64,000 nucleotides of DNA, from assembly GCA_017451425.1 (NCBI GenBank), contig JAFSPP010000011.1, positions 26,510 through 90,509 on the forward strand, in the 5' to 3' direction. A program made the position numbers and the translations under genes. Shown piece by piece: positions 252-15,831 of this stretch. The notes below the pieces were generated by a model that saw only the letters and a list, made by a program, of their open reading frames with translations, searched no databases and was not told the DNA's origin. Each line of letters starts with the position of its first letter. Within the stretch, counting starts at the first letter, position 1. The DNA is from Clostridia bacterium. Its GTDB lineage: Bacteria > Bacillota > Clostridia > Oscillospirales > Acutalibacteraceae.

Positions 252-1508
252 ATGTCGGACAAAAAATTATCTTTTTCCCAAAACTCTGCCTATAACACAA
301 TTGGTATTTTAATCAACAATTTTTGTCTTTGGCTTACAACACTTGCTGTTGTACGGCTTAGTCCCGATTATGCAAATGCAGGTGTCTGGCAACTCTCTAT
401 AAGTGTCATAAATATTTTTTCGACTCTGGCAGCTTTTAATCTGATGCAATACTATGTTTCGGATGTTAACAATGAGCATCAGCTTGAAGATTATTTAGGC
501 ACTCAACTTATAACTTGCATCAGTGCGTCGCTGATATGCGTGGCATATTCAACCATCTGCGGATACAGAGGAGCACAGTTTTTCTGTATTTGCGCATACA
601 TGCTTGTTAGGGTGATAGAGGTTATTGCCGGATTCATGTTCGGAATCGATCAGCGTAATTACCGTATGGACTTTGTAGGAATATCATACGCGCTGCGCGG
701 CATACTTGAGTTGGTTCTGTTCTCGCTTGTGCTCTATACGACGAAGAACATTGTCTTTGCTGTTCTTTCTATGGCGATTGCAGCATTGACACTCCTTGTT
801 TTCTATGATATTCCAAATGCAAAACGCTTTGGAAAAATAAGCGTTTCTATTTCAGGGGAGAAGGTAAAATCGATAGTATTGAAATGTACTCGTTCAGTTC
901 TTGCTATTTCAATATTCATTGCCGTTTCAACAATACCGAGACAGTTCCTTGAAAAAATGTATAATTCCGAAGCGATAGGCTATTATTCAACAATTGCTGC
1001 GCCTATAGTTGTTATACAGGTGATAGTTATAAATGTATTTTTGCCTTTGCTTCGCGATGTTGCTGAGTACTATAAAAACGGCAATTTTGAAAAATTGAAA
1101 ACAATTGCTTTGAAAATAATTGCCACCCTCATAGGACTTGCGGTTTTGGGAAATCTAGGAGCGGTGGTCTTGGGAAAGCCGGTATATGGTCTGCTTTACG
1201 GACAGGGCATAAGGGATTATTGCTATCTCATTTATGCTGTTATAGGTTGTGTAATACTTTATGCTGCCTGCTGGGCCTGCTGGACTACACTCATTGCCAT
1301 CAGAAAGACCAATCTTATGATTTGGTTTTCCGCGATTTCACTTTTGACTGTAATTGTTTTCGGACGACCTATGATTAACCATTTCGGATTAAACGGTGTA
1401 AGTTTTGTTACCATAATTGCTTACGGCATTTATCTGGTCCTAAGTGTATTTTTTATTCTGTACAATGTGAAAAAACAAAAGGAAAGCTTCAATGGAACAG
1501 GAGACTAA
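252..1508 (+). CDS. Wzx-like polysaccharide/oligosaccharide flippase (MOP superfamily), polytopic membrane protein
   Basis: 418 aa and almost entirely hydrophobic helices (about 12 TM). The size and layout are typical of 'polysaccharide biosynthesis protein' flippases. Its 3' end overlaps the next gene by 17 nt. Confidence 0.5.
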   Translation: MSDKKLSFSQNSAYNTIGILINNFCLWLTTLAVVRLSPDYANAGVWQLSISVINIFSTLAAFNLMQYYVSDVNNEHQLEDYLGTQLITCISASLICVAYSTICGYRGAQFFCICAYMLVRVIEVIAGFMFGIDQRNYRMDFVGISYALRGILELVLFSLVLYTTKNIVFAVLSMAIAALTLLVFYDIPNAKRFGKISVSISGEKVKSIVLKCTRSVLAISIFIAVSTIPRQFLEKMYNSEAIGYYSTIAAPIVVIQVIVINVFLPLLRDVAEYYKNGNFEKLKTIALKIIATLIGLAVLGNLGAVVLGKPVYGLLYGQGIRDYCYLIYAVIGCVILYAACWACWTTLIAIRKTNLMIWFSAISLLTVIVFGRPMINHFGLNGVSFVTIIAYGIYLVLSVFFILYNVKKQKESFNGTGD

Positions 1509-3594
1509 GCGCAGACAACTTTACAGGGAAATAATGATTCTGCTTATCATCATGATGATAGGCACTCTTTTACGTCTGCCTATAGGTAATTTTTCTGATG
1601 CAGATGTAAAAATGCTTAATGATCCGGATTCTTATTATTACGCCCGCAAAGCTGTGGAATACTATAACCAACCTGTTTCGGATTGGTCACTTTTCTCAAG
1701 TCGTGCTGACGATCCGTTAATGACTGCAAATCATATTGACGATACTGAACCTACCCCTATGCTTATGCCGATTATTGCAGCGCTGATTTGTAAGATTTTC
1801 AGTTTTCTCTCAATTGATTATGTTATCTATTATGGCATGACTTTATTTTCCGTGCTGGCCGCGATTCCCGTGTTCCTTTTTATAAAGAGTCATTCAACAT
1901 CATTCGGTGGTTTCTTGGGCGCTGCACTTACAGTTCTGTCGTTTTCCTATTTTATTCACACAAAATACGGATACTTTGATACTGACGGCATGATTCTGGT
2001 TATCGCATTGTCATTTATGCTGTCGCATATTGAGTTTCTGATACAGCCGGATAAAAAACAAAAAATAACATTTGCAGTGCTTAGCATCATATTTCTCGTC
2101 CTGTTTTCCTTAACCTGGAATATGTACTTTGTGTATGCTGCAATTGCACTTATTTTGCTCGCGGTAATTACGGTATATAAGATTATCCGAAAAGAGAAAG
2201 AAAACTATTCGATTGTCGCGATATATTCTGTTTGTGTGTTGCTGATTTGTTTCGGCATAAGCAGGAAACATATTGTTTCAATGTTTTTCAGCATTGTATC
2301 AAAGCCTGAAACTGTCGGGTGGCCTTTACCGGGCAAGTTCATAAGTGAACTTTCAGTACCTTCATTGATTTCTGATGGCCCGAATACGGGATTTATCATC
2401 GCAAATACCGGAATACTAAATTTTTCCGGCGGTTATGCCTTGTTTTTTGCGCTTCTGATCTCTATTGCTCTATTTATTTATGAACTCGTGCAGAAATGTA
2501 TAAAACAAAATGCAACATGTGAATACAACTTTTCTCTGGCAATAACGTTGATTGTCTGGTTGATTATATCGTTTTTACTTACCTTGAGGGGAATAAGATA
2601 TGTTCAGCTCTTTGTGCTTCCGTTAAGCGTTTTTGTTGCCTACAGTTTTGCCGTTGTAATAAAGGAATTCGGCAAAAAGAGCCTGACCGGTTTAAAAAAA
2701 GACTTCCTTGTAATAATAATTGCTGCGCTAACTTTTGGTGGGTTGATACTTGTAAATCTTTATGTTGCTGTGGCCATCACTTTAGCAATTACGTTCGTTG
2801 GCCTTTTTGAGCGAAAAGTAGCCATTAAATACGGTGTATATATGCTGTTATTATCACTGTTCTCAGCCTTGATATGCAATTGCTATTATGTAACCATCAC
2901 TACTAAACGTTATGTAGACGATGATTTGTGCGAGGTAACGGAATATCTGGCTTACAATTCACCTGAAAACAGTATGGTTGTTTCCTGGTGGGATTACGGA
3001 TACTACTTTGAATATGCTGCGCAAAGGCAAGTGGCTGCTGATGGAGGTACTTTCAGTGGCGAAGCGTTTTATTGGCTGGCAAACATATTTGTGACAGATA
3101 ATCCGCAGCTTTCAAAAGGCATATGCAATATGTTGGCAGGGGGAAGTATTGATGCTTCTGAACTTTCCGGAGAATATGCCGGTTCTGCAGATGCCGGAGC
3201 GCAGATGCTTAAAGATATCCTGGTTATGAATAAATATGACGCGGCTGCATGTCTTAAAGAAAAGCACGGTTTGAATGAGGATGAAATAGATAAACTGATA
3301 AGTCGCTCGCATCCTTCTGAAACAAAACCGGTTTACATAGTGCTTTCAGATAAAATGATGTGTGATTCGTCCATCATTGCATATTACGGACTTTGGAATT
3401 TCAAAGATGATATAATACTGAGTTTTGATGATGACTTTGATTATAAAAAGGATACAAGTTACTATCCTGCGGAAATCAGGGATTCAATTATGCTGAAACT
3501 ATATTTCGGCGATTTGCCGGATGGATTTTCAGAAGTGTTTTCGAATGAAACTTTTAAGATTTTTGCTTTGGACACAAAACTTGCAGGTGAATGA
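1492..3594 (+). CDS. GT-C fold glycosyltransferase resembling STT3/AglB/PglB oligosaccharyltransferases
   Basis: 700 aa, with a many-TM N-terminal region and a soluble C-terminal domain of about 200 aa. A literal WWDYG motif lies at nt 2986-3000. The acidic loop motif NDPDSYYYAR (nt 1621-1641) follows TM1, where the STT3-family catalytic DxD/EL1 motif sits. Confidence 0.6.
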   Translation: MEQETKRRQLYREIMILLIIMMIGTLLRLPIGNFSDADVKMLNDPDSYYYARKAVEYYNQPVSDWSLFSSRADDPLMTANHIDDTEPTPMLMPIIAALICKIFSFLSIDYVIYYGMTLFSVLAAIPVFLFIKSHSTSFGGFLGAALTVLSFSYFIHTKYGYFDTDGMILVIALSFMLSHIEFLIQPDKKQKITFAVLSIIFLVLFSLTWNMYFVYAAIALILLAVITVYKIIRKEKENYSIVAIYSVCVLLICFGISRKHIVSMFFSIVSKPETVGWPLPGKFISELSVPSLISDGPNTGFIIANTGILNFSGGYALFFALLISIALFIYELVQKCIKQNATCEYNFSLAITLIVWLIISFLLTLRGIRYVQLFVLPLSVFVAYSFAVVIKEFGKKSLTGLKKDFLVIIIAALTFGGLILVNLYVAVAITLAITFVGLFERKVAIKYGVYMLLLSLFSALICNCYYVTITTKRYVDDDLCEVTEYLAYNSPENSMVVSWWDYGYYFEYAAQRQVAADGGTFSGEAFYWLANIFVTDNPQLSKGICNMLAGGSIDASELSGEYAGSADAGAQMLKDILVMNKYDAAACLKEKHGLNEDEIDKLISRSHPSETKPVYIVLSDKMMCDSSIIAYYGLWNFKDDIILSFDDDFDYKKDTSYYPAEIRDSIMLKLYFGDLPDGFSEVFSNETFKIFALDTKLAGE

Positions 3595-4871
3595 CAATAA
3601 TGAGTAAAACTGACGGTCTGATTCTAAACAGAATTTTTGCTATGCCCGATGAAAAACTTATCAGGTTTTGTTTTGCTGCCGTGATTATCTGGATAATCTC
3701 ACCTATAGCGGCTCTGCTCTCAAATCTGTTGGGAATTGACGGGTATAATTTTTGCGGTGTCTGGCTGACATTTTTGTATGTTTCCGGAGCCCTGGGCCTT
3801 ATTTTCGGCGGACTGTTTCTTTTCAAAATGTATTCGTTTTCAGACGCGGAACTCAGGGCTAAACTGATGCTGTCAGAACCACTTATATTAGTCGGAACGG
3901 TCTTTTTATGGGCTGTGTTCTGCACGCTGTTCGCAGGTGAAAAAACGATAGCCATTTACGGATATGAAAAGTTTCATGATAATCTGTTTGTCTATTTGTT
4001 TTATGGCGGTATGATTACTGCAGGAATTGCGGTAAAGAATTCTGAAAAGTATCTTTTGAAATCTGCAGAGGCTTTTTTATGTGTTGCCGCATCTTTGTCG
4101 TTTGTTTCGCTTGTAAATAACGGTGTTACTAATAAACTTTGCAGAAATTCCCTTACGGAAACCGATGGGCATGAGGCTGTGTTTTTTGATACTGAACATT
4201 TTGCCATGTACCTTGTTATGGCAATTATTGTTTGCGCATTTCTGGTTTTGCGGCTTTCAAAAACCGGTGGGCGGATTATTGTTTTATTTGCTCTTGGTCT
4301 GATGGTTGCCGCTTTGGCTTTTACTGGCAGTCTTGCAGGGCTCATTGCACTGGCTTTGGTTTCATTATTTACAATTCTGCGGTATAACAAACTGCCGGCA
4401 AGCAGTTTAAAAGTTCTGCTTTTGGAATTGTCAGTATGTCTTGTTGTATATATACTGATTGTGTCGGTATTTAAGGTCGTTCCCGCATTTCCCGAGAATA
4501 TGCTGGTGTTTTGGCGTAACACTCTTAAAAAGGTCGGAGAAAATGCAGTTGTAGGTATCGGACCGCAGAATACATTGGGATATGCTTATAATGTGTATCT
4601 GAAAATCTGCCTTTATCTCGGTGTGCCGGGATTATTGCTTTATCTTGCGGCCTTCATTACTGCGGCACGAGAACTTATTTCTCAAAATATGAAAATGCCG
4701 CTTTATGCTGTTGCGGCGGTTATGACGGCAATCGGATATGTGATTTTTGCCTTTTTCGGTTCAACAATGTTTTATACCGCACCATATTTCTATATTGTTA
4801 TTGGCATTATCTTCGGAAAATGCCTGGAACCATTAGGAAAAACGGTAAAAGTGAATTGTGACAAAAATTGA
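3591..4871 (+). CDS. Polytopic membrane protein, O-antigen ligase/polymerase-like (Wzy_C-like)
   Basis: 426 aa with about 10-12 TM helices. The late segment GIGPQNTLGYAYNVYLKICLYLGVPGLLLYL resembles the Wzy_C block (G-x-G...H-N-x-Y-L...E-x-G), but the His and Glu are replaced. An ATGA start/stop overlap links it to the upstream gene. Confidence 0.4.
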   Translation: MTIMSKTDGLILNRIFAMPDEKLIRFCFAAVIIWIISPIAALLSNLLGIDGYNFCGVWLTFLYVSGALGLIFGGLFLFKMYSFSDAELRAKLMLSEPLILVGTVFLWAVFCTLFAGEKTIAIYGYEKFHDNLFVYLFYGGMITAGIAVKNSEKYLLKSAEAFLCVAASLSFVSLVNNGVTNKLCRNSLTETDGHEAVFFDTEHFAMYLVMAIIVCAFLVLRLSKTGGRIIVLFALGLMVAALAFTGSLAGLIALALVSLFTILRYNKLPASSLKVLLLELSVCLVVYILIVSVFKVVPAFPENMLVFWRNTLKKVGENAVVGIGPQNTLGYAYNVYLKICLYLGVPGLLLYLAAFITAARELISQNMKMPLYAVAAVMTAIGYVIFAFFGSTMFYTAPYFYIVIGIIFGKCLEPLGKTVKVNCDKN

Positions 4872-5043: not shown

Positions 5044-5424
5044 ATGAGAAAGCTTAACAAAAAGGGTTTCACACTCGTTGAAATCGTAATCGTAATCGTT
5101 ATCATCGCTATTCTTGCTGCTATGCTTGTTCCCGCTCTTACACAGTGGATCAAGAAGTCTAAGATTAAGACTTTCACATCTGCTTGCGCAACAATCAAGA
5201 CAGCTGTTTGGGCTCAGGCTGCTGAGTCTTATGGCACAGATGGTACCGTAAAGGTTGACTGGTCAACAGTTTCTGCTGACGTTGGTAAGGAAGTTACTAA
5301 TGGTACAGGCGGCGTTTATCAGGTAACATCTTTCAACTTCCAGAACGATAACATCACCGTTACAGATAAGGCCTTCCAGGGCGTATGGACCGGTGATACT
5401 TGGAACGTTACTGAGAAGAGCTAA
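5044..5424 (+). CDS. pilA: Type IV (major) pilin with a prepilin N-terminal cleavage/methylation signal
   Basis: The N-terminus MRKLNKKG|FTLVEIVIVIVIIAILAAMLVP has a class III signal peptide: Gly-1, Phe+1, Glu+5 and a hydrophobic helix. RBS GAAGGGAG lies upstream and a strong terminator lies downstream. Confidence 0.85.
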   Translation: MRKLNKKGFTLVEIVIVIVIIAILAAMLVPALTQWIKKSKIKTFTSACATIKTAVWAQAAESYGTDGTVKVDWSTVSADVGKEVTNGTGGVYQVTSFNFQNDNITVTDKAFQGVWTGDTWNVTEKS

Positions 5425-5542: not shown

Positions 5543-6376
5543 ATGCCTGAAAAAGTCGCTGTAGGTCTGTTTTTGTTCCTGCTCTTTATGTTCGGAGCAT
5601 GCATAGGCAGTTTCTGTAATGTTGTTGCCATGCGCGTGCCGCTCAAAGAGAGCTTTACAAAAGGCAGGTCTCATTGTCCGAAGTGTAAGCATGATCTTAA
5701 TGCTTTGGACCTCATACCTTTTTTCAGTTGGATATTCTTACGCGGCAAGTGCCGTTATTGTAAAGAGAAGATCTCATTCCGGTATCCGTTTACGGAACTG
5801 GTGGGAGGTCTTGCCGCACTGTTTTCACTGTGGCAGCTGGGCGTTACTGTTAATGCTCTGGTTCTTTTTTATATTATTATGGTACTTGTAACCTTATCAA
5901 TGATTGATTTGGAGACCATGGAAATACCAGACGGTTTCCATATTGCAATCCTTGTGGCTGCAATTCTCAGCTATTGGTTTGGTCCGACATTTGGGATTAT
6001 GGATCCCGGTATTGTTTCCCGTGTAATAGGTTTCTTCGTTGTAAGTGTGCCTATGTATATTTTGGCAATGCTTACCGGAGGCTTCGGCGGGGGAGACATT
6101 AAACTTATGGCCGTTGCAGGCCTTCTGCTTGGCTGGAAAGCAACTCTCGTTGCATTTATGGTCGGTATATTTGCGGCAGCTTTTTACTGCATATATATTG
6201 TCATTTATGCTGCGGTTGCTGTTGCAAGAAAGAAAGCAGATTCTTTCAAGGATGGAATGCATTCTGCCATGAAAAGGCAGTTTGCGTTTGGACCTTATCT
6301 GAGTGTGGGTATTGTTGTTGCGTATCTGTACTCAGAACAACTTATTTCGTTTTATTGGGGAATGTTTCTGAAGTAA
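5543..6376 (+). CDS. pilD: Prepilin peptidase / N-methyltransferase (A24 family)
   Basis: Contains CPKC...CRYC zinc-knuckle-like cysteines, the segment LIPFFSWIFLRGKCRYCKEKISFRYPFTEL, and the two catalytic Asp contexts (DLETMEIPDG and GGGDIKLM). Confidence 0.9.
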   Translation: MPEKVAVGLFLFLLFMFGACIGSFCNVVAMRVPLKESFTKGRSHCPKCKHDLNALDLIPFFSWIFLRGKCRYCKEKISFRYPFTELVGGLAALFSLWQLGVTVNALVLFYIIMVLVTLSMIDLETMEIPDGFHIAILVAAILSYWFGPTFGIMDPGIVSRVIGFFVVSVPMYILAMLTGGFGGGDIKLMAVAGLLLGWKATLVAFMVGIFAAAFYCIYIVIYAAVAVARKKADSFKDGMHSAMKRQFAFGPYLSVGIVVAYLYSEQLISFYWGMFLK

Positions 6377-6524: not shown

Positions 6525-7739
6525 GTGCCCGTATACAGTTACAATGCCGTAACTCTTGATGGCAAAAAGAAGAGCGGCACTCTCGAGGCAGACAACCCTC
6601 AGAAACTTGCGGAACGTCTCCGTGACATGGACCTCTACGTTTCGGATTTCAAGGTCAAGGGCGGATCAAAGACTCTGACTAAGTCTAAACTTAAAGCAAC
6701 AGACCTCTCCGATATGTGCCGTCAGATTGGTACGATGGTAGGTTCCGGTGTCGTAATCGCACGTGCGGTTGATATTATCCGCAGCCGTCAGGGTATCAAC
6801 CCGAAAATCAAGGAGATATACGACGGCCTTTATAATTCACTCAGACAGGGTATGTCTCTCTCTGAGGCGATGGCAGATCAGGGTAATACTTTCCCGAAGA
6901 TGCTCATCAACATGATTATTGCCGGTGAGTCTTCCGGTACCATGGACCAGACTCTTATGAGAATGGCTGAGCACTATGACAAGGAAGAGCGTCTGAACTC
7001 GCAGATTAAGAGTGCCACAACTTATCCGAAGATTTTGATTGTAATTATCGTTGCGGTAATTATCATCCTCTTCGCTGTTGTACTTCCTACATTCTTCGAA
7101 ACATACAAGGAAATGGATATGGAACTTCCGACTGTAACTAAGATTATGGTTGGTCTTTCCGATTTCATTACAAAGAAGTGGTATATTTACATTCCGGTTG
7201 TTGTTGCTATATTCTTCGGTTGGCGTATTGCCAATGCAAATCCGGATTTCGTTCTTTGGAAGGATACAACTAAGGTTCACCTTCCCAAGATAGGTCCTCT
7301 TATGAGAATTATCTACACAGCCCGTTTTGCAAGAACAATTGCTTCACTTTATGCTTCGGGTATTCCGCTTGTTGACTGTCTTACAATCGCTGCCGGTACA
7401 GTAGGCAATACCTACATTGAAAAACAGGTTGTTGAATGTATTAAGGATGTTAAAGGCGGTGCGGCAGTTTCGGAAGTCATACGTACTATTGACGGTTTTG
7501 ACTCAAAACTTTCTGCGACTATCCTCATCGGTGAGGAGACCGGTAAGCTGGATGAGATGCTTCTTTCTACAGCTGACCAGTTCGAGTACGAATCTGAGCA
7601 GGCCACAGGACGTCTTACAGCTCTGATTGAGCCGGTAATGCTCGTTGTAATGGCCGGTCTTGTCGGTTCAGTACTTATCGGCGTTATCGTACCCATGTAC
7701 GGTATGTATGAGGGTATCGACGCCAACGCCGGCGTTTAA
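6525..7739 (+). CDS. pilC: Type IV pilus platform protein (GspF/PilC family)
   Basis: 404 aa. It has the duplicated T2SS-F architecture (two cytoplasmic helical domains and 3 TM) and a typical C-terminal EPVMLVVMAGLVG segment. GTG start after AAAGGAG. Confidence 0.9.
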   Translation: MPVYSYNAVTLDGKKKSGTLEADNPQKLAERLRDMDLYVSDFKVKGGSKTLTKSKLKATDLSDMCRQIGTMVGSGVVIARAVDIIRSRQGINPKIKEIYDGLYNSLRQGMSLSEAMADQGNTFPKMLINMIIAGESSGTMDQTLMRMAEHYDKEERLNSQIKSATTYPKILIVIIVAVIIILFAVVLPTFFETYKEMDMELPTVTKIMVGLSDFITKKWYIYIPVVVAIFFGWRIANANPDFVLWKDTTKVHLPKIGPLMRIIYTARFARTIASLYASGIPLVDCLTIAAGTVGNTYIEKQVVECIKDVKGGAAVSEVIRTIDGFDSKLSATILIGEETGKLDEMLLSTADQFEYESEQATGRLTALIEPVMLVVMAGLVGSVLIGVIVPMYGMYEGIDANAGV

Positions 7740-7766
7740 TAATAAAGGAGGGAAAGAAAGAGTATT

Positions 7767-8660
7767 ATGATTACTTCCGTTTATGTTTCAAACGAAAAAA
7801 TACAGGTACTCACAGGCGAGAAGGATAAAAAGAATCGCCTGGATGTAAAAGCGGTTATGTACGCTACGCTTCCCGAAAAGGCCATGGCTAACGGTGTCAT
7901 TACCGACGAGCTTGGCGTGAAGGAAGCCGTTCAGAAGATCTGGGATAAGTACAATCTTCCGAAGAAGGACGTACATCTCGTTATTGACTCCGGCACAATC
8001 CTCAACAAGAAGGTTGCTTGCCCGGTAGTTCCGAAGGAGTCACTTCCGAATATCGTAAAAGATGAATTCAAAGATGTTGAAGGTTTTGCAAACTTCCTTT
8101 TCGACTACACTGTAATTGAAGACGGCCGCAATGGTGAGCCTCTGCTCTTCGCTAACGCTGTAGGTAAGGAACTTGTTTCTGCTTACGTTCGCGTTTTCAA
8201 CGGCCTTGGAATTTCAATCTCGAGAATCAACACAGGCATAAATGCTGAGATGGCTCTCATCGCAGCAAACCCTGCAACAGCTCATGACACACAGATCGTG
8301 GTCAACCTTGACCCGACAAGCCTTACATCAGTTCTTTACATCGATGGTAAGTACAGCTTCGCAAGCCGCAGCCGTCTCATCGAGGCCAGAGGTTCTGAGG
8401 CTTCACGTATGGAAATCGTTCGTGCACTTTCTTCACTCATTCAGTTCGCACGTTCCGAGAACTCCCAGAAGCCCGTTAAGGCAGTATACGTTTGCGGTAT
8501 GGTAGAGTCCGAAGCAGACCTTTGCCCGAAGATTTCGGCAATGCTCGGCTGCCCGGTATCAACTCTTCCCGCATGTGACAACATTACTTGCACTAAAGAC
8601 AGGAATAAGGCAGCTTTCCTTATGGCTGACTACACCTATGCTTTAGGCAATATGCTTTAA
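7767..8660 (+). CDS. pilM: PilM-like actin-fold pilus assembly protein
   Basis: 297 aa and soluble. The position directly after pilC and the overall pattern (N-terminal beta-strand start, ...LPxxxxxNGVIxD..., ...VxLVIDSG...) are typical of PilM. Confidence 0.65.
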   Translation: MITSVYVSNEKIQVLTGEKDKKNRLDVKAVMYATLPEKAMANGVITDELGVKEAVQKIWDKYNLPKKDVHLVIDSGTILNKKVACPVVPKESLPNIVKDEFKDVEGFANFLFDYTVIEDGRNGEPLLFANAVGKELVSAYVRVFNGLGISISRINTGINAEMALIAANPATAHDTQIVVNLDPTSLTSVLYIDGKYSFASRSRLIEARGSEASRMEIVRALSSLIQFARSENSQKPVKAVYVCGMVESEADLCPKISAMLGCPVSTLPACDNITCTKDRNKAAFLMADYTYALGNML

Positions 8661-8678
8661 GAAAGGAGCGTGTGATAT

Positions 8679-9398
8679 ATGGCTTTTAAGAAAAAAGATG
8701 CCAATCCGATGATGATTGACGGCAATACATCCGCTCCGGCTCCTGCTGCTCCTGCAGCAAAGGAGAAAAAGTCCAAGGTTAAATATCTTGAACCCAACGA
8801 AATGAACTTCTACGAGCAGTACAAGGTCGTAGTTGAAGGCAAGAAGAAGGACGTTGACCTCGCTAAGATTCTCAAGCCCCTGATTGCCGTACTCATAGTT
8901 GTTCTTGCAGTATTTGTTATCCTTGAAGCTATTCTTATCGGATTCAAGGCTAAGAATAAGTCACTTGATAAGTACATCAATGACCCGAACAACATCGCTT
9001 CCTACAACGAGGCGCTTGCTGTTAAGGAAGAGACAGAGACTGTTAATGCTGCCAAAGCAAACATGGAATCTCTTCTTACTGCAATTGATACATATCCGAA
9101 CGTCGGCAAGGACTTCTTTGCAAAAGTTGCTTCCGTAGCCACAAAGAACAATGTAACAATCACCAACTATTCATTCGCAAATGAGAACGGATGGCTGAAC
9201 CTGGCATGTAACGCAAGTGCTACCAAGGACATTTCTCAGTTCGTTCGTGATCTTGAAACACTCGGTCTCTTCGGTAATGTTAATTACACCGGATTCCAGA
9301 GTAATGGTGATGCCACAGGCGGCTATGGTTACTCAGTTGACTGCACTTGCCTTGGCGATCCTAACTATTCACAGGCCGCTGCAGGCACTGAAGGCTAA
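8679..9398 (+). CDS. PilN-like bitopic pilus assembly protein
   Basis: A short cytoplasmic N-terminus, one TM (ILKPLIAVLIVVLAVFVILEAILIGF), then a coiled-coil and a globular periplasm-side domain. It follows pilM. Assigned by synteny and topology only. Confidence 0.45.
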   Translation: MAFKKKDANPMMIDGNTSAPAPAAPAAKEKKSKVKYLEPNEMNFYEQYKVVVEGKKKDVDLAKILKPLIAVLIVVLAVFVILEAILIGFKAKNKSLDKYINDPNNIASYNEALAVKEETETVNAAKANMESLLTAIDTYPNVGKDFFAKVASVATKNNVTITNYSFANENGWLNLACNASATKDISQFVRDLETLGLFGNVNYTGFQSNGDATGGYGYSVDCTCLGDPNYSQAAAGTEG

Positions 9399-9415
9399 GA
9401 AAGGGGAGATTTAAA

Positions 9416-10003
9416 ATGACAGAAAAAGATAAGAAAACCTTAATTATTGCTGCTATTGCTCTCCTTATATTCGGTATCGCTTTCCTCGGTATCAGACCCG
9501 CAATAACAAATCTGAAAGAGGAAAGAGCAAAGAACGTAGAGCTTTCAGCACAGAAACAGACAATGCAGACAGAGATTAACTCTCTCCCTACATACAAGAC
9601 AAATCTTGAAACAGCGAAGACGAACTACAATGCAACGGCTTCCCGCGCATTTGCAGATCTTCCGAATGACAAGATTCACGACGTAGTTATTGACGAAATC
9701 GTTACTCCGCTCGGCCTTGATGTAAAAGCATTCCGCATTAACAGCATTGAACCTCTCGGTGTAAACAATTATGTTGTACCTTCAGCTGATGCAGGCGCTT
9801 CACCGGCTCTTGTTGCAGGCACAACAGACCTTGCTTATATTACTGTTGATGTAGTAGGCACACAGGAGCAGATAATTGCGCTTGTTGACAAACTTAATGC
9901 GACAGAGGGCACATACCTCTCAAACATTTCGTTCTCAACGGTTGCAGACAATGCTACGGTATCAGTTCCGTTCTATATGGTTCTTTCGGAGACATTTGAA
10001 TAA
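9416..10003 (+). CDS. PilO-like bitopic pilus assembly protein
   Basis: An N-terminal TM (LIIAAIALLIFGIAFLGI), a coiled-coil (NLKEERAKNVELSAQKQTMQTEINSL), then a C-terminal domain. Synteny is pilM-N-O. Confidence 0.5.
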   Translation: MTEKDKKTLIIAAIALLIFGIAFLGIRPAITNLKEERAKNVELSAQKQTMQTEINSLPTYKTNLETAKTNYNATASRAFADLPNDKIHDVVIDEIVTPLGLDVKAFRINSIEPLGVNNYVVPSADAGASPALVAGTTDLAYITVDVVGTQEQIIALVDKLNATEGTYLSNISFSTVADNATVSVPFYMVLSETFE

Positions 10004-10045
10004 TACGATTCTCTGAAGGATACTCCGATAAAACGAAAAGAGTTT

Positions 10046-10091
10046 GGCACAAGTTCCGGTTTTTTCCGGGGCTTGTGCCCTGTCTTTTTTT
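10046..10091 (+). terminator. Rho-independent terminator ending the pilD..pilO unit
   Basis: GGCACAAG (10046-10053) pairs with CTTGTGCC (10072-10079), with an inner CCGG/CCGG pairing, followed by a T-rich run (TGTCTTTTTTT). Confidence 0.6.
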
Positions 10092-10099
10092 ATAAGTCC

Positions 10100-10158
10100 A
10101 AAAAAAGTTAAAAAAATGTTAAAAAACTATTCACATTTTGATTTCTTTGATATATAAT
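10100..10158 (+). promoter_or_regulatory. Putative promoter with a phased A-tract (UP-like) element for the minor-pilin operon
   Basis: TTCACA (10130-10135), a 17-nt spacer, then TATAAT (10153-10158). Three A6-7 tracts start at 10100, 10110 and 10121, about one helical turn apart. Confidence 0.4.
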
Positions 10159-10269
10159 AGGTTCATAAAGCGTGGTAGTGTATCTACCCGCGGGACGCAC
10201 GAGAATTATTCATAATTGATTTTATGCATAATTTCAAATCCGGCTTCCAAATAAAGGAGGTAAACATTT

Positions 10270-11961
10270 ATGAGAGTATTGGGAAATAAAAAGGGTTCGG
10301 CACTGCTCTGGTGCATACTCCTGATTATTATTCTCACAATTCTTTTGGGTAGTGTACTTACGGCTACTTATGCCTATTACAACTACACCATGCGTACTGT
10401 TAAGAGACAGCAGGCCTATTTTACTGCTCGTTCTGCAGTGTCCATGCTTCTTGAGGAACTCACCTCTGAAGAGCAGGTAGCTACAAACGGCGAATATCTG
10501 GAGTCGTCCATTTCAGTGCTTCCTTCAAGAAAGGGCGCTGATCATGCCGTAACCGTAAGCGATTTCGGTTTCGGTGAAAAGATGGGTTCGGCTGAAGCTA
10601 CTCTTGTACGTAACGATGACGACGAAATTAATATTGAAGTAACGGCATATTATCCCGATAACATAAACGGTGAGAAGTATGTTATGAAGGCTACTGTTTG
10701 CCGCCAGCCGCTTTATTTCGGCGGTATTGCTGTTAAGCATCTTTCGCTTGACGGCAAGCTTACTCTTGGCGAAAACACAGACCTTTACTGGAACAATACG
10801 GATATTTTCAACACAGCCGGTAATGGTTCCTCTTTTAAGAATAATGGCGGCACTCTTTCCGTTAACGGTAACCTCGTTACAAAAGGAGATGCCACAATTA
10901 CGGCCGGTAATGTTGTTGCAGGCAGAAACTTCTATGGAACAGCCACATTCTCCGGTGATTCTCTTCATTCAAAGAAAATCTGGTCTCCGACAGAATATAT
11001 TATTTCTAACAAGACATTAAGAGTTGATGATGCTGAGAACACGGAGTACACGACAAACGCTATTAATACTCTCAAAAATATTACTAACTATACCATTAAA
11101 TATTGTAACAGCAGAGGCACAAGTGCTTTCGGTCCGAATCCCGTGCTTGCAGATATCTTAGGTGTTGATGTCGGCCAGCTTATGTCCGGTATTCCAATCA
11201 TCGGTAACATTATTTCTGATACAAATGATCAGTTTATGAAGGTTTCCGACTCAAATAACAGCGCTTTGTCCATCAGATACATTAAGCTTCTTTCAACATA
11301 CAAAGCAATTTCTGATGCGCTTGATAACGCTCCTTTGGTCCTGCAGCCAATGATTAATATTATTCGCGCCTTACCTACAACGCAGGCGGCAGCCAGTCTT
11401 ATGAGAGATTGCTACGATGCTCCTTGGATTGATTTCTCTTCATCTGATGAAGGCAACAGATCTGATGAGGTCGTACCTCTTACTTATCTCTTTGTTGACA
11501 GCAAACTCGGCGTCCGTGTTCAGTACGGCAGAGATCCGGGCAAAGCCAGTTTTATAGGTCAGATTACTGATAATATTTCTAATAATGTTGGCTCATTTAT
11601 CAACAGCGTTTTTGATATTCGCAATAAGCCCAGTTATCTTGTTGCTTATATGGAACCCAATTCTTATATCGAACTCGGCTATGGTTGCGGCAAGGGACAT
11701 GTTAACCCGAAGACAGGTGTTACAGAAAACAACAGCCGAAACAGAGGCACGCCACAGAACCTTGTTTTCCTTTATTCACTATATGGTGGAGATAACACAA
11801 CGGTTATCCTTCACGACGGCGTAACGGTTATAGGTGAGATTATCTGTGACAATCTTATTATCGAAGGCGATGCCAAGATAATTTACTCATCAATAAACGG
11901 CGGTCAGATAGCTAAACAGAAGATTGCTGAGTATTGGGCCGTATCAAATTATTCGGATTAA
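10270..11961 (+). CDS. PilX_N-domain pilus-associated protein, large (563 aa)
   Basis: The N-terminus KKGSALLWCILLIIILTILLGSVLT...RQQAYFTARSAV matches the PilX N-terminal pattern (GSAL, hydrophobic helix, QAFxAAEAG). It has no Glu+5 or canonical G|F cleavage site. The remainder is Asn/Gly/Thr-rich. Confidence 0.55.
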   Translation: MRVLGNKKGSALLWCILLIIILTILLGSVLTATYAYYNYTMRTVKRQQAYFTARSAVSMLLEELTSEEQVATNGEYLESSISVLPSRKGADHAVTVSDFGFGEKMGSAEATLVRNDDDEINIEVTAYYPDNINGEKYVMKATVCRQPLYFGGIAVKHLSLDGKLTLGENTDLYWNNTDIFNTAGNGSSFKNNGGTLSVNGNLVTKGDATITAGNVVAGRNFYGTATFSGDSLHSKKIWSPTEYIISNKTLRVDDAENTEYTTNAINTLKNITNYTIKYCNSRGTSAFGPNPVLADILGVDVGQLMSGIPIIGNIISDTNDQFMKVSDSNNSALSIRYIKLLSTYKAISDALDNAPLVLQPMINIIRALPTTQAAASLMRDCYDAPWIDFSSSDEGNRSDEVVPLTYLFVDSKLGVRVQYGRDPGKASFIGQITDNISNNVGSFINSVFDIRNKPSYLVAYMEPNSYIELGYGCGKGHVNPKTGVTENNSRNRGTPQNLVFLYSLYGGDNTTVILHDGVTVIGEIICDNLIIEGDAKIIYSSINGGQIAKQKIAEYWAVSNYSD

Positions 11962-11973
11962 GGGGGCTGCTTT

Positions 11974-12381
11974 ATGAAGAAACTTGATAATAAAGGTTTG
12001 ACTCTTGTTGAGCTTATACTCGCAGCAGTTATCCTTGCAATTTCCGGACTTATGCTTGCCACGACTTTCACATCTGCAATGAGAATTATGAGTCGTGCAA
12101 TACTTTACAAGAACGTCAGTGCAACAGCTGCAGAGACAGTTGAACTTGCCGAGGAACAGGAACCGGTCGAAAACTTTGTTTACGATGTTGACAGTTCCGA
12201 AAAGAACGGCACATTGACTATCACTTACAAGAAAGACAATGTTGATAGTACAACGACAATGAGCGGTCAGTACTATTTTGCAGAGGTCTCAAAAGATGAC
12301 GAGAGGGTCGGCCTGACTTACAAGGAGTTCCTTCCGAGTAACTTCAGTTACGACATTCCTGCGGCCCCTGTAGGGGATTAA
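11974..12381 (+). CDS. Minor type IV pilin / pseudopilin
   Basis: The N-terminus MKKLDNKG|LTLVELILAAVILAISGLMLA is a prepilin cleavage/methylation motif with Glu+5. Confidence 0.75.
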   Translation: MKKLDNKGLTLVELILAAVILAISGLMLATTFTSAMRIMSRAILYKNVSATAAETVELAEEQEPVENFVYDVDSSEKNGTLTITYKKDNVDSTTTMSGQYYFAEVSKDDERVGLTYKEFLPSNFSYDIPAAPVGD

Positions 12382-12405
12382 GTATACAGAAAGGACGAGT
12401 GACTT

Positions 12406-14928
12406 ATGAATATTTTTGAAATAAGAAAAAATAAACTCGGTATGACACTTGTGGAAATGGTTCTTTCCCTTGTAATCCTCGGTATACTTATGACTTCTAC
12501 TATGGGTATGGTAATATCGAGTAATCAGATTTTCATTTCAACAAGTAAAGCCGCAATTGACAAGCAGGTTGGTAACTACTCTTTCGATTTCATCGAAAAG
12601 GTTCTCCGTTACACAACACACATGTCAATCTACAATGAGGGCACTTCACCCAATGATTCCAATCTTCAGTCTCTCTCATTGAATAAGACTGATAATACCA
12701 ATGATTCCGGCATACTTATGTTTAAGCGCGCTGAGGATAACGATCCTTACTCTCTTTACGATAATGGTTTCTACGGCAATAGAACAATCCAGTATTCTGT
12801 TCATAAGGTCGGTAAAAAGAGCCAGCACGTAAAACTTAAAGTAACTGTCTTCAGAGAGGGCAGAGCGGTTTATTCGAGAGAATCCGTTGTCAAGTGCTTG
12901 AACCTTAACCTTGTTGCAATAGGTGACGGTGCAAATCCGATTGTTGATAAGTCATCTGCCGATGCAGTAAACCAGACAATCACATTCTCCGTTGATGAAA
13001 AGCTTCTTTCCGGCGGTAAGAATGCTTACTCACTTGAGTTCAAGGTTTCCGAGTTCATGGGTAAGTACAACAAGATTCAGAAAGCTTATGTTGCCGATAT
13101 AGGTAAGGCTTATACAAAGTATATCAGCGGTAACTATGATGCTGAGGAAAACCCCGGTATCCGCGGTACAACTGATGCTTACAACGGCAGAATTGAAGCC
13201 GAGACATACGCAGCCAGAATGAATGCCTATACAAAGATTGTATTCGGCGACGGAGCGACACCTACAAACTATGATCCCGATCGTATTGAAAACTGTGTAA
13301 ACCTTCGTGCTTACTATCAGCAGGAAATCAATGATCTCCTTAAATTTGATCTTAAATCTTCAAATGCCGCAGGTTTTACCAATGGTAACTTTACCAACAA
13401 TATTATCGGTACAACATCTTATAAGCTTCATAATGGTGATGCCTTCTACGGCGTAGTTGCGACCAAGGAAGAGATGTACTTTGGTTTCATGCTCAACCAT
13501 TATGACAAGAATAACGACGGCACTATTTCAAAGGCTGAATATCCTCAGTTTGAGGGCGACTCCTTCTTCAAGGGCACATCCATGGATTCTTATTTAAAGA
13601 ATACCAGCGGCAACCAGATGGTTATCATGTGCTACTTCAAGGACAATGTTGCCAATGATAACTACAAGGGCCTTGTAGCAAAGACAACCCAGGATGTTTA
13701 CTCCTTCAACGGATCTGTTTCGCACTCTGCTGCAGCGAATGGATCAGCAACTAAACCCGGAGCATCAACAATCCAAGATTACAGCGGAAATAACAGTGAT
13801 GTACCTTCCGGTACAAGTTATCTTAATACCTCCAAGGTATATATCTACTATTCAGATAACAATTACAGAGCCGGTGGCACAAATCTCAACTATGACCGTT
13901 CTGGTAATATTATTTCCGGATACACATATCCCGGCACGGCAATTGAAAATTATCTCAAGAATACACTCGGTGCAAAGAATGCTACTCCTTCTTTTAATGT
14001 AGCATCACATATTTCAGGTTCGGATCATAACGATACTAAGAATTGCTCTTATACCGCACCGACCGACCTTACAGAAGGCTGGTATTATTCCAAGGTTCCG
14101 TATTACAGTGCAGGTGCTGCTAATACTAAATATTGTTTCTGTCTCTTCTATCTCCAGGCTATTGATCAGACAGAAGAGGCTGACGGCCAGGAAATAGTAC
14201 TGAATCCGAATAAAATTGCCATCTTCAGAGGCGGTAAAATTAATTACTCGTTTGCCAACAGCTCGGGTGTATTAGAAACTATTTACTATAAACTGGGTTC
14301 ATTCACTTATGACCAGGCGCAGTTTACAGTAAGCCACGAAGCACAGGGCGGCAACACCACTTCCACTGACTTCCTTGAGTACACAGCACACCAGTATGTT
14401 GACTATGCACTCTACGGAACAGACTGGAACTCCTGGTTCAATGCGAACCCTTCAGGTCTTATTAACCAGCTTGCGAATGTTGTTACGAATTTCGTTAACA
14501 CAATTCGTGGTAAGGCCATAAATAAGAACATAACCAGCATAAGTACGGCAAATGCAGTTCAGTCGCTTGGTAACATCGGACAGCACAACATTTCTACTGC
14601 GATGGACAATCAGGCTGCATCTTATAACCTTGCTTGGTGTGTTTACAGCCCGAAGCGCGGCACATGGTACTATCTGCCCGCCAGATCAACAAGACTTTCA
14701 GGTCTTGCTTCTTCCTTCTCGTTCTCATCAAAGAAGGACGCACCGACACCGCTTGATGCTGACCTTGATGACGGTTCCTGGAGATCCTCCAGCGCAATGG
14801 TAAGTGATATCGAGATGCGTAAACTGTCAAGCAGCGGTCTCTTTGGACTTGTTGATACGACCTCTGATGTACTTTGGGTAGCACTTCCTACAGGTAACAC
14901 AATCGATCTTGATTCCGTTACCGGTTAA
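12406..14928 (+). CDS. Giant modular pilin-like protein (840 aa), candidate tip protein or adhesin
   Basis: The N-terminus ...RKNKLG|MTLVEMVLSLVILGILM has a prepilin-type signal with Glu+5, followed by about 800 aa of Asn/Ser/Thr/Tyr-rich extracellular sequence. This includes a canonical EF-hand-like loop DKNNDGTISKAE at nt 13504-13539. Confidence 0.7.
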   Translation: MNIFEIRKNKLGMTLVEMVLSLVILGILMTSTMGMVISSNQIFISTSKAAIDKQVGNYSFDFIEKVLRYTTHMSIYNEGTSPNDSNLQSLSLNKTDNTNDSGILMFKRAEDNDPYSLYDNGFYGNRTIQYSVHKVGKKSQHVKLKVTVFREGRAVYSRESVVKCLNLNLVAIGDGANPIVDKSSADAVNQTITFSVDEKLLSGGKNAYSLEFKVSEFMGKYNKIQKAYVADIGKAYTKYISGNYDAEENPGIRGTTDAYNGRIEAETYAARMNAYTKIVFGDGATPTNYDPDRIENCVNLRAYYQQEINDLLKFDLKSSNAAGFTNGNFTNNIIGTTSYKLHNGDAFYGVVATKEEMYFGFMLNHYDKNNDGTISKAEYPQFEGDSFFKGTSMDSYLKNTSGNQMVIMCYFKDNVANDNYKGLVAKTTQDVYSFNGSVSHSAAANGSATKPGASTIQDYSGNNSDVPSGTSYLNTSKVYIYYSDNNYRAGGTNLNYDRSGNIISGYTYPGTAIENYLKNTLGAKNATPSFNVASHISGSDHNDTKNCSYTAPTDLTEGWYYSKVPYYSAGAANTKYCFCLFYLQAIDQTEEADGQEIVLNPNKIAIFRGGKINYSFANSSGVLETIYYKLGSFTYDQAQFTVSHEAQGGNTTSTDFLEYTAHQYVDYALYGTDWNSWFNANPSGLINQLANVVTNFVNTIRGKAINKNITSISTANAVQSLGNIGQHNISTAMDNQAASYNLAWCVYSPKRGTWYYLPARSTRLSGLASSFSFSSKKDAPTPLDADLDDGSWRSSSAMVSDIEMRKLSSSGLFGLVDTTSDVLWVALPTGNTIDLDSVTG

Positions 14929-14964
14929 TTGCAGATTTCTGCAAATCCAATAAAACGAATAGCA

Positions 14965-14996
14965 GGGGCGGGCTTTTGTCCGCCTCTGTTTCTTTT
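14965..14996 (+). terminator. Probable Rho-independent terminator after the minor-pilin operon
   Basis: GGGGCGGGC (14965-14973) pairs with GTCCGCCTC (14978-14986) with two G-U pairs and a TTTT loop, followed by TGTTTCTTTT. Confidence 0.5.
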
Positions 14997-15084: not shown

Positions 15085-15831
15085 ATGAAGCTTAATTATG
15101 CAGGCAGAAGAGCGTTTGAAGTGTTTACGTTTATTCTGGACTGGATTCTTATTCTGGCCCTGCTCGTCAGCCTTTATAATATATTTATGCGTAAAGTGCG
15201 CCATGAACCTCTGCCAATGCTTTTCGGCAGGGGATATGCGGTAACGGTTTCGGGTTCCATGGAGCCGACAATTGCCATAGGCGACATTGTGTGGATTAAA
15301 CAGCAGCCTAAGTATGATGTGGGCGATATTATCGTGTTTGTGGATAAGGATTCGCCTAATCAGTCTCTGGTAACGCACAGGATTGTCGGTGTTACGGAGG
15401 AGGGCTATATCACCAAGGGCGATAATAACAATACGGCGGATTCCGGTGTTGTGGAGCCACATTACATTAAGGGTGCTGCGACGCATCTTATTCATTACTT
15501 CGGAGCTACGTTGCTGTTCATTCAAAAGCCGATTGGCATGTTCCTGATGCTGCTTTTAGCATTGCTGCTTATTGAGCTTCCGTACCGTATCAGGACGAGG
15601 TACAGGGAAGAGACCATGGCAGCGCTTGATAACATGGTCCACAGGGTCGAAATACAGGGCAAAGAGGTTATTGCGCCTGATCGTACCCTTGAGTTCAATG
15701 ACGGTTCTTATAGGGCGCCACAGAAGACGAAGAGGCAGATTGACTTCGAGCGCGAACTCGACTGGAGGCGCCGCAAGAAGCAGAAGCGGAAGATATTTGT
15801 GCCTGATGAGGGTCACTGGGATATTGACTAG
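15085..15831 (+). CDS. Signal peptidase I, SipW/archaeal-eukaryal (S26B) type, with a long charged C-terminal tail
   Basis: Has the catalytic Ser context VSGSMEPTIAIGDIVWIK, the segments THRIVGV and GYITKGDNN, and a second TM. About 85 extra C-terminal residues are rich in R/K/E (RRRKKQKRK). Confidence 0.75.
   Translation: MKLNYAGRRAFEVFTFILDWILILALLVSLYNIFMRKVRHEPLPMLFGRGYAVTVSGSMEPTIAIGDIVWIKQQPKYDVGDIIVFVDKDSPNQSLVTHRIVGVTEEGYITKGDNNNTADSGVVEPHYIKGAATHLIHYFGATLLFIQKPIGMFLMLLLALLLIELPYRIRTRYREETMAALDNMVHRVEIQGKEVIAPDRTLEFNDGSYRAPQKTKRQIDFERELDWRRRKKQKRKIFVPDEGHWDID

Follow-up and report, generated by a model that had tools for sequence, protein, structure and literature searches.

A giant minor pilin with a hypervariable inserted module and an EF-hand-type loop in the type IV pilus locus of a gut Clostridia bacterium

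The DNA analysed here, referred to below as the window, is a stretch of 64,000 nucleotides from a Clostridia bacterium of the family Acutalibacteraceae (NCBI GenBank assembly GCA_017451425.1, contig JAFSPP010000011.1), and coordinates given without a contig label are positions in this window. It carries a type IV pilus locus in which the open reading frame (ORF) at 12406-14928 encodes an 840-residue protein with a prepilin signal, called here the giant pilin. The original prediction, made from the letters alone, had presented it as a modular pilin with a calcium-binding loop and as a candidate tip adhesin. The gene and its parts are laid out as follows.

12406..14928, + strand: giant minor pilin gene (P0001, 840 residues, stop codon included), from the ORF list and translation, with 45 homologous clusters and contigs from RNA libraries covering the gene.
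12406..12441, + strand: class III (prepilin) leader peptide, residues 1-12, last residue Gly12; N_methyl and TIGR02532 above cut-offs, K10 and G12 invariant in 41 relatives.
12442..12915, + strand: pilin module, residues 13-170, with the alpha-1 helix carrying Glu+5 (E17) and a beta-sheet; from the model, structural matches and matches of small pilins.
12997..13665, + strand: helical domain, residues 198-420, with a 38-residue helix, three more helices and a beta hairpin; carries the calcium loop; from the model.
13465..13503, + strand: entering helix of the EF-hand-like motif, residues 354-366, EEMYFGFMLNHY; from DSSP of the model, with E355 invariant and G360 and F361 nearly invariant.
13504..13539, + strand: 12-residue EF-hand-type loop DKNNDGTISKAE, residues 367-378, followed by Tyr379 and the invariant Pro380; from the pattern and its conservation.
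13666..14385, + strand: hypervariable inserted beta module, residues 421-660, with a core (residues 460-641) common to the protein P0065; from identity, length variation and short forms.
14386..14925, + strand: conserved C-terminal domain, residues 661-840, with the motifs WNSWF, SLGN, TWYYLP and WVALP; conservation of 40-70%, kept in short-form relatives.

The ORF is open throughout, and its product starts with MNIFEIRKNKLG, followed after the cleavage site (KLG/MTLVEM) by MTLVEMVLSLVILGILMTSTMGMV, with Gly at position -1, Glu at +5 and a run of some 22 hydrophobic residues. The signal scored 24.2 bits with Pfam N_methyl (cut-off 21.2) and 17.8 bits with TIGR02532 (cut-off 16.3). N_methyl was matched in all 41 aligned relatives, among which K10, G12, T14 and E17 are invariant. 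The proposal of a genuine class III signal with Glu+5 at the head of an 840-residue protein was thus confirmed, and so was the estimate that the protein is about five times the size of an ordinary minor pilin, its length being 4 to 6 times that of the neighbouring 126-135-residue pilins and of the 170-200-residue minor pilins matching its first 170 residues. About 100 such ordinary minor pilins, found in an exhaustive HMMER pass over 1.84 billion representatives, align with residues 6-170 only.

In the AlphaFold model of the whole protein the pilin module consists of a helix at residues 10-69 and strands at residues 72-163. The top structural match was Streptococcus sanguinis PilB (VIA Z 13.8), and a 173-residue prepilin in the ESM Atlas gave a TM score of 0.78 (normalised by match). 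Weak Z scores of 5.0-5.6 were obtained over model residues 44-172 with the GspJ-type proteins XcpW, EpsJ and GspJ; none of the J-type sequence models in Pfam and NCBIfam (GspJ, PilW, ComGF) was matched by the giant pilin. On every testable criterion, i.e. the signal, the machinery in the genome and the pilin fold, the giant pilin is a type IV pilin.

About 30 residues modelled with low confidence separate the pilin module from the helical domain, which at residues 204-400, approximately, had a predicted local distance difference test score (pLDDT) of 85-96 in the whole model and, when modelled alone, a pLDDT of 79 and a predicted template modelling score (pTM) of 0.76. It is followed by a beta-rich region at residues 405-673. 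Models of small prepilins aligned with the giant pilin over ranges ending at residues 830-836, and pilin-fold alignments overall reached residues 830-838; the models are suggestive of a C-terminal end that may pack with the pilin module.

Foldseek found nothing in the PDB at E up to 0.001, either with the whole model or with the helical domain. With the whole model, wide VIA-align searches returned pilin matches only, and the AFDB clusters and the ESM Atlas only prepilin proteins. The helical domain had no relative in the PDB, the AFDB clusters or the ESM Atlas, VIA giving generic helical bundles with Z up to 5.3, and the language-model look-alikes of residues 198-420 and 405-675 included no usable match. 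Its reading as an alpha-domain of the GspK type was rejected, there being no structural match and none to chain K of 3ci0. Sequence profiles of the whole family, the helical domain, the C-terminal domain and the central module gave only sub-significant EF-hand matches against the PDB. Pfam searches of all 41 relatives detected N_methyl, weak EF-hand matches, one cadherin-like domain in a single relative and nothing else; lectin, carbohydrate-binding module (CBM), von Willebrand factor A (vWA) and immunoglobulin (Ig) domains were not matched in structure, Pfam or PDB-profile searches. The domain-structure check suggested with the original prediction therefore found independent modules beyond the pilin fold but no recognisable binding fold. 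The relative with the cadherin-like domain, the 1023-residue P0021, carries it as an extra beta-sandwich (PF12733, E 3.3e-8), which indicates that the scaffold can take on further modules.

The domains differ strongly in their conservation. In comparison with P0003, the closest sequence-distinct relative, identity is 92% in the pilin module, 91% in the helical domain and 85% in the C-terminal domain, and 55% in residues 421-660. The segment between the conserved anchors at residues 411 and 558 ranges from 124 to 356 residues across the relatives, and the identity between paralogs of a single genome is 12-23% for the module versus 34-64% for the scaffold. In relatives of 524-555 residues a shortened helical domain lies between the pilin module and the C-terminal domain; because the central module is missing from these short forms, it is regarded as an insertion. 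The motifs EGWYY and FYLxA are conserved in its core.

Three complete small proteins aligned only with residues 445-643 in the exhaustive search. One of the three, P0065 (271 residues), is encoded in the genome of the giant pilin itself (C1:56582-57394), directly upstream of pilB, and consists of an N-terminal signal-like helix and the module. Residues 72-265 of P0065 are 36% identical to residues 460-641 of the giant pilin (E 1e-29), i.e. as close as the third-nearest orthologue, and the free-standing P0065-type family comprises five clusters only. Since its core also occurs as this free-standing protein, the central module is, as judged from sequence, an autonomous, exchangeable unit.

The pilB-type ATPase gene on contig C1 lies directly downstream of a SipW cluster (C1:52,300-59,500, equal to L049:713-8867). 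The cluster contains a second SipW-type signal peptidase (309 residues, TIGR02228 73 bits) and four proteins whose family is unassigned, and three of its proteins (200, 238 and 271 residues, the last being P0065) share T-x-A-K-Y right after the signal helix. With another SipW-type peptidase gene at window positions 15085-15831, both pilus loci of this genome adjoin a SipW peptidase.

The original prediction had placed an EF-hand-type loop at nucleotides 13504-13539, and these encode exactly residues 367-378. The loop was tested against the PROSITE EF-hand pattern PS00018 and fits it with D1, N3, D5, G6, I8 and E12; a canonical EF-hand loop has its ligands at positions 1, 3, 5, 9 and 12, with Gly at 6 and a hydrophobic residue at 8. 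Among all ORFs of at least 100 residues in the 1.48-Mb genome (567,200 residues) the pattern was matched four times, two of the matches lying within one genuine dockerin. It fits the homologous position in 28 of the 41 family members, exactly once per protein. Its conservation tracks the ligand positions (D at position 1 in 31/41, N or D at position 3 in 41/41, D at position 5 in 30/41, G at position 6 in 28/41, I or V at position 8 in 41/41, E or D at position 12 in 38/41), and, taken as a sequence motif, the loop is conserved well above chance. Matches to EF-hand_5 and EF-hand_1 were obtained in 13 and 8 relatives, respectively, with E up to 0.01, and the family profile picked true EF-hand proteins (RIB22, KChIP2) over exactly the helix and loop, with non-significant E-values. 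In the model a beta-bridge is formed at Ile8/Ser9 of the loop, followed by one helical turn before Pro380; no calmodulin-like structural match to the helical-domain model was found in the PDB, the AFDB clusters or the ESM Atlas.

The term EF-hand/dockerin-type, used in the original prediction, holds for the 12-residue EF-hand-type pattern, but the loop is unpaired, its exit helix is truncated and no dockerin match was found. A type I dockerin (PF00404) has two tandem 22-residue repeats; a single loop is present here, and a genome search with PF00404 missed this gene and found the true dockerins, so this candidate was discarded. Dockerin modules above the Pfam cut-off are located at C54:12695-12868 (- strand) and C16:2177-2335 (+ strand), in open frames of 736 and 660 residues. 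The calcium loop is probably a structural Ca2+ site in the helical domain, which would serve as a pedestal, about 40 residues before the insertion point of the central module, and it is read here as neither a dockerin nor a switch. Ca2+-dependent folding, also proposed originally, cannot be central to the family because 13 of 41 relatives have lost the loop, three of the four paralog copies examined among them.

The giant pilin gene is the last of a three-gene cassette that has a predicted promoter and terminator to itself and follows the genes of the pilus machinery. The features of this region are listed below.

5044..5424, + strand: 126-residue major-type pilin (N_methyl E 1.2e-8).
5543..6376, + strand: PilD, a prepilin peptidase of the A24 family that should process the leader at Gly12 (A24_N_bact E 1.3e-33; Peptidase_A24 E 2.3e-15).
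6525..10003, + strand: PilC, PilM, PilN and PilO-like assembly platform genes (T2SSF and PilM_2 above cut-offs; PilN 19.8 bits, below 22.8; synteny kept).
10046..10079, + strand: terminator-like hairpin with a 14-bp stem and a T run after the PilO-like gene, dividing the machinery genes from the cassette.
10130..10158, + strand: promoter-like TTCACA-17-TATAAT before the cassette (11 of 12 consensus positions).
10270..11961, + strand: 563-residue partner with a GspK/PilX/ComGG-like N-terminus, the presumed tip-complex cap, directly upstream of the two pilins in 6/6 relatives.
11974..12381, + strand: 135-residue small minor pilin (KG/LTLVEL), the middle gene of the cassette (N_methyl above cut-off; conserved synteny).
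14961..14990, + strand: terminator-like hairpin with a 13-bp stem and a T run, 33 nucleotides past the stop codon of the giant pilin gene (from the sequence and the ends of RNA contigs).

The PilB-type ATPase and two PilT-like ATPases are encoded on other contigs (C1, C38, C42). The 563-residue protein starts with KKG/SALLW, without Glu5, and its residues 1-80 match NCBIfam ComGG_2 (E 4.5e-5) and GspK (E 7.5e-4), both below the cut-offs. A ComGG/GspK-like N-terminus lacking Glu5 is the signature of the cap subunit in type IV filament tip complexes (PMC9934059). A tapirin model gave a weak N-terminal match to this protein (E 0.0045) and no full-length match.

The order of the 563-residue protein, the small pilin and the giant pilin was kept in 6/6 relatives examined and in two further contigs. 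In one genome (G301) cassette and machinery genes are not linked. Two others, G313 (L021, C25) and G306 (L022, C11), each possess two complete cassettes in convergent, tail-to-tail arrangement; the duplicated giant pilins of L021 and L022 differ almost wholly in the central module, and in G313 one copy only keeps the canonical calcium loop. In same-genus genomes (L019-L022, L024) the cassette proteins are 36-51% identical, versus 67-81% for PilC and PilM, and this faster divergence is as expected for exposed parts.

Expression was followed in contigs from two sheep-gut metatranscriptome libraries (runs X13 and X16), at 94-97% identity to the window. The X13 contigs cover 10346-13451 and 13525-14945, and the X16 contig covers 11979-14774. 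RNA depth falls to about zero beyond 14828; in DNA runs the depth is flat and the contigs continue past the giant pilin gene. At the other end, X13 has no coverage over 9004-10095; depth returns from the bin 10096-10459, and the long contig begins at 10346. The major pilin gene had an RNA depth of 187-257 in comparison to about 15 for the remaining locus, i.e. it was covered 12-17 times deeper, in the RNA libraries only. These profiles speak for genuine transcripts and for unit boundaries as predicted; that the genes share one transcript is more than contigs can prove.

At E < 1e-30 the exhaustive pass yielded 27 proteins. The full-length protein was found in 11 of 17 species-representative genomes of the same genus, and one other genus of the family has a 524-residue form. 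In about 280 genomes of the order's other families the search was negative, except for one weak match to the pilin module. The relatives belong to Candidatus Limimonas and to metagenome-assembled genomes of Acutalibacteraceae and Oscillospiraceae from horse, human and other guts, and the giant pilin gene itself was found in sheep and goat gut metagenomes.

Among known systems, the closest in design are the modular pilins of S. sanguinis, where PilA is joined in a tip complex by PilB (vWA module) and PilC (lectin module) (PMC8179133, PMC9934059; PDB 7b7p). Like them, the giant pilin is a Gram-positive minor pilin with a canonical class III signal, a small pilin module and bulky extra mass; it has a small-pilin partner, as PilC has the GspI-like PilA, and location at the tip is expected on steric grounds. 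Unlike theirs, its extra domains match no functional domain, its module is inserted rather than grafted to the C-terminus via a short linker, a calcium-loop motif takes the place of the metal-ion-dependent adhesion site (MIDAS), and the cassette includes a 563-residue, Glu5-less, cap-like protein that is missing in S. sanguinis. The giant pilin therefore fits the modular pilin idea (Raynaud et al. 2021, PMC8179133) in spirit, not to the letter: modules beyond the pilin fold are present, as had been predicted, whereas no defined functional domain was recognised among them and the variable one is an insertion.

The cassette also resembles GspK-GspI-GspJ of the HIJK set (PDB 3ci0, 2ret, 3nje) in being a three-gene set with a large Glu5-less member, a small pilin and a larger pilin. 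The next pilin matches of the pilin module are the GspJ orthologues (Z 5.0-5.6), and the N-terminus of the 563-residue protein is weakly GspK/ComGG-like. The two sets differ in that the order here is K-like protein, small pilin, giant pilin, with no H-type gene, that the J-like member and not the K-like one alone is hugely enlarged, and that the helical domain is unlike the GspK alpha-domain.

Clostridioides difficile PilJ (PDB 4ixj), a Clostridia minor pilin with two pilin-like domains, was the second-best structural match. At a middling Z of 8.8 its C-terminal pilin-like domain was aligned with model residues 202-828, including the long helix at 204-241 and C-terminal strands of the giant pilin; this is a lead and not a demonstrated relationship. 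PilJ has 262 residues and lacks both insertions and an EF loop. With canonical EF-hands the giant pilin shares the 12-residue loop and a preceding helix with the usual hydrophobic pattern; it departs from EF-hands and dockerins in its single loop, in the exit helix of one turn before Pro380 and in the lack of a dockerin match.

The explanation considered best, which is held to be slightly more likely than not, is that the giant pilin is a minor pilin of the tip complex that displays an exchangeable, hypervariable and probably ligand-binding module on a calcium-loop pedestal. In a Gram-positive type IV pilus it would serve as a minor pilin, matured by the prepilin peptidase. By analogy with GspK-I-J/HIJK and with PilA-B-C of S. 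sanguinis, the cap-like 563-residue protein, the 135-residue pilin and the giant pilin would form a complex that primes assembly and ends up at the tip. Residues 13-170 would anchor the protein in the filament, and the helical domain (residues 198-420) would act as the pedestal, its EF-hand-type loop probably binding Ca2+ and stiffening the domain. The inserted beta module of about 240 residues (421-660) is probably an exposed ligand-recognising surface, and the C-terminal domain (661-840) probably packs back on the scaffold. While the gene, its signal, the loop conservation, the synteny, the limits of the transcription unit, the occurrence in RNA libraries, the layout, the hypervariability and the sharing of the module are observed, we infer the tip location and the binding of ligand and Ca2+; the adhesin role is suggested by the tip-cassette context together with the hypervariability. 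The earlier proposal of a pilus-borne adhesin or binding module thus keeps its first half, in that an autonomous extra module is carried on a prepilin in a pilus locus with its own peptidase, but no lectin, CBM, vWA or Ig match came to its aid.

Several results weigh against this explanation. The whole-protein model is of moderate confidence only (pLDDT 70, pTM 0.53), the C-terminal domain was poorly modelled, with low pLDDT despite its strong conservation, and no binding fold was recognised in any extra domain in the PDB, AFDB, Atlas, Pfam or PDB-profile searches. The GspJ-type assignment has weak Z scores without support from sequence models, and presence in RNA libraries does not demonstrate that the protein is made or that it is in pili. 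The calcium loop scored 18.1 bits with Pfam EF-hand_1, under the gathering score of 25.4; its exiting helix consists of residues 376-378 only and is broken by the invariant Pro380, the loop is single-copy and unpaired in every relative, it is degenerate in the 13 relatives and three paralog copies mentioned above, and its absence from all short-form relatives (524-555 residues) counts against a central role. Finally, the hypervariability of the module could be explained by phage or antibody pressure instead of ligand diversity. On this last point is built the most serious rival, although an unlikely one: a purely structural tip subunit that primes assembly, with a module that has no ligand and varies to escape pilus phages or host antibodies. 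The cassette context would fit it equally well, no known binding fold has to be accounted for, and extreme divergence confined to the module is what is expected of an exposed surface under attack. A decoy, however, needs no insertion of 124-356 residues (between anchors 411 and 558) with conserved EGWYY and FYLxA motifs, and an independent function would more readily explain the free-standing copy beside pilB. Another, distinctly improbable alternative, modelled on archaeal sugar-binding proteins that carry prepilin signals, is that the class III signal serves for export or anchoring only and the giant pilin is a cell-surface receptor or binding protein outside any filament. Its 840-residue bulk is hard to place except at a tip, its C-terminal domain has no sequence match in the PDB and its incorporation into the pilus is presumed, all of which would suit such a protein. 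On the other hand, Glu5 and the pilin-type module of alpha-1 helix and beta-sheet are invariant, the linkage to the Glu5-less cap-like protein and the small pilin is strict, and the tip is known to have room for bulky modular pilins such as PilB and PilC (PMC8179133, PMC9934059).

In another reading, considered highly improbable, the loop would be a calcium switch in the manner of PilY1, and its sensing of Ca2+ would govern either the extension and retraction of the pilus or tip activity. Gut contents are rich in calcium, which speaks more for a structural role. EF-hand-like calcium sites are reported for the PilY1/PilC tip proteins of diderm type IVa pili (PMC8833165). Like those of Pseudomonas, Neisseria, Kingella and Myxococcus, the giant pilin would be a large tip-associated protein that works with minor pilins and has a calcium loop, and the duplicated cassettes among its relatives recall the several sets per genome of Myxococcus PilY1. 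The loop is present in 28/41 members with ligand positions kept, and the genome has two PilT-like ATPases. PilY1 (PF05567), however, is a non-pilin with a beta-propeller, whereas the giant pilin is a pilin with neither Pfam nor structural similarity to that propeller, and its loop is dispensable in many relatives, being degenerate in one third of the family, including paralogs adjoining canonical copies, and missing from the short forms. Least probable of all is the plant-fibre (cellulose or xylan) adhesin that the original prediction had proposed from the analogy with Ruminococcus. The organism does come from sheep, goat and horse guts, type IV pilins are associated with cellulose in R. albus and R. 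flavefaciens (PMC3672088), and two dockerin-bearing proteins are encoded in the genome. The relatives, however, are Acutalibacteraceae; glycoside hydrolase families GH5 and GH9 and the cohesin family were unmatched in the 95%-complete 1.48-Mb genome, cohesin despite the two dockerin-bearing proteins; no CBM or lectin signature was found in the giant pilin or its 40 relatives; and the cellulose-associated Ruminococcus protein is a small major pilin, not a giant minor one. The cellulose link is thus weakened and finds no support here.

An extension of the preferred explanation, that of a ligand-binding tip pilin, is offered as a speculation with rather little chance of being right: the central module may be a ligand-recognition unit that has been moved between the tip pilin and SipW-dependent secreted proteins encoded beside pilB. 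If so, the pilus tip and secreted or fibre proteins would share one target, strain-specific tropism for hosts or partners would come from alternative tip cassettes (duplicated in some species), and the EF-hand-type loop beside the insertion point would couple presentation of the module to Ca2+.

Hardly any studies deal with the type IV pili of gut Clostridia or with the targets of their tips. The giant pilin family offers a compact candidate, a putative tip pilin whose sole fast-evolving part is an inserted module of about 200 residues. As nature makes a free-standing version, the module should be expressible alone, which makes ligand screens practical for an uncultured lineage of ruminant and horse guts. 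The family would widen the modular pilin idea from the C-terminal graft of a known domain to the insertion of an exchangeable module into a conserved three-part scaffold, and it would be a further instance, beyond the PilY1 family, of a pilus tip protein with a calcium-loop motif. Its value is judged moderate, the class being already known and the function inferred.

Several further observations were made on the cassette and its surroundings. The SipW-type peptidase gene at 15085-15831 adjoins the cassette here, in the contigs of P0003 and P0004, in G301 and in G313; it is not adjacent to the cassette in G307, G306, G324 and G314. A PhdYeFM-PIN toxin-antitoxin pair separates the giant pilin and SipW peptidase genes in the P0003 contig, as an insertion. 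After the transmembrane helix of the 563-residue protein the motif (S/T)-Y-A-Y-F-(N/S)-Y-T is kept in 7/8 orthologues (L019-L024), and in a genome-wide pattern scan this type of motif was found in five ORFs only, three of them inside the C1 SipW cluster. The 563-residue protein may be cut by the neighbouring SipW peptidase and not by PilD. The giant pilin has 20 N-x-S/T sequons against about 14 expected and one D/E-x-N-x-S/T only, counts that are uninformative on enrichment for N-glycosylation.

The window segment 5225-5538, which covers the major pilin gene's 3' half together with the spacer before pilD, is replaced in other sheep and goat contigs by unrelated sequence of similar length, with joints at 5225/5451, 5225/5538, 5296/5380 and 5418/5538, so the C-terminal half of the major pilin is also strain-variable. 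A second major-type pilin gene (131 residues, KKG/FTLIEIV) is located at C48:23209-23604, 3.3 kb upstream of the window start, so that the STT3-type oligosaccharyltransferase cassette (window positions 252-4871) has a pilin gene on either side.

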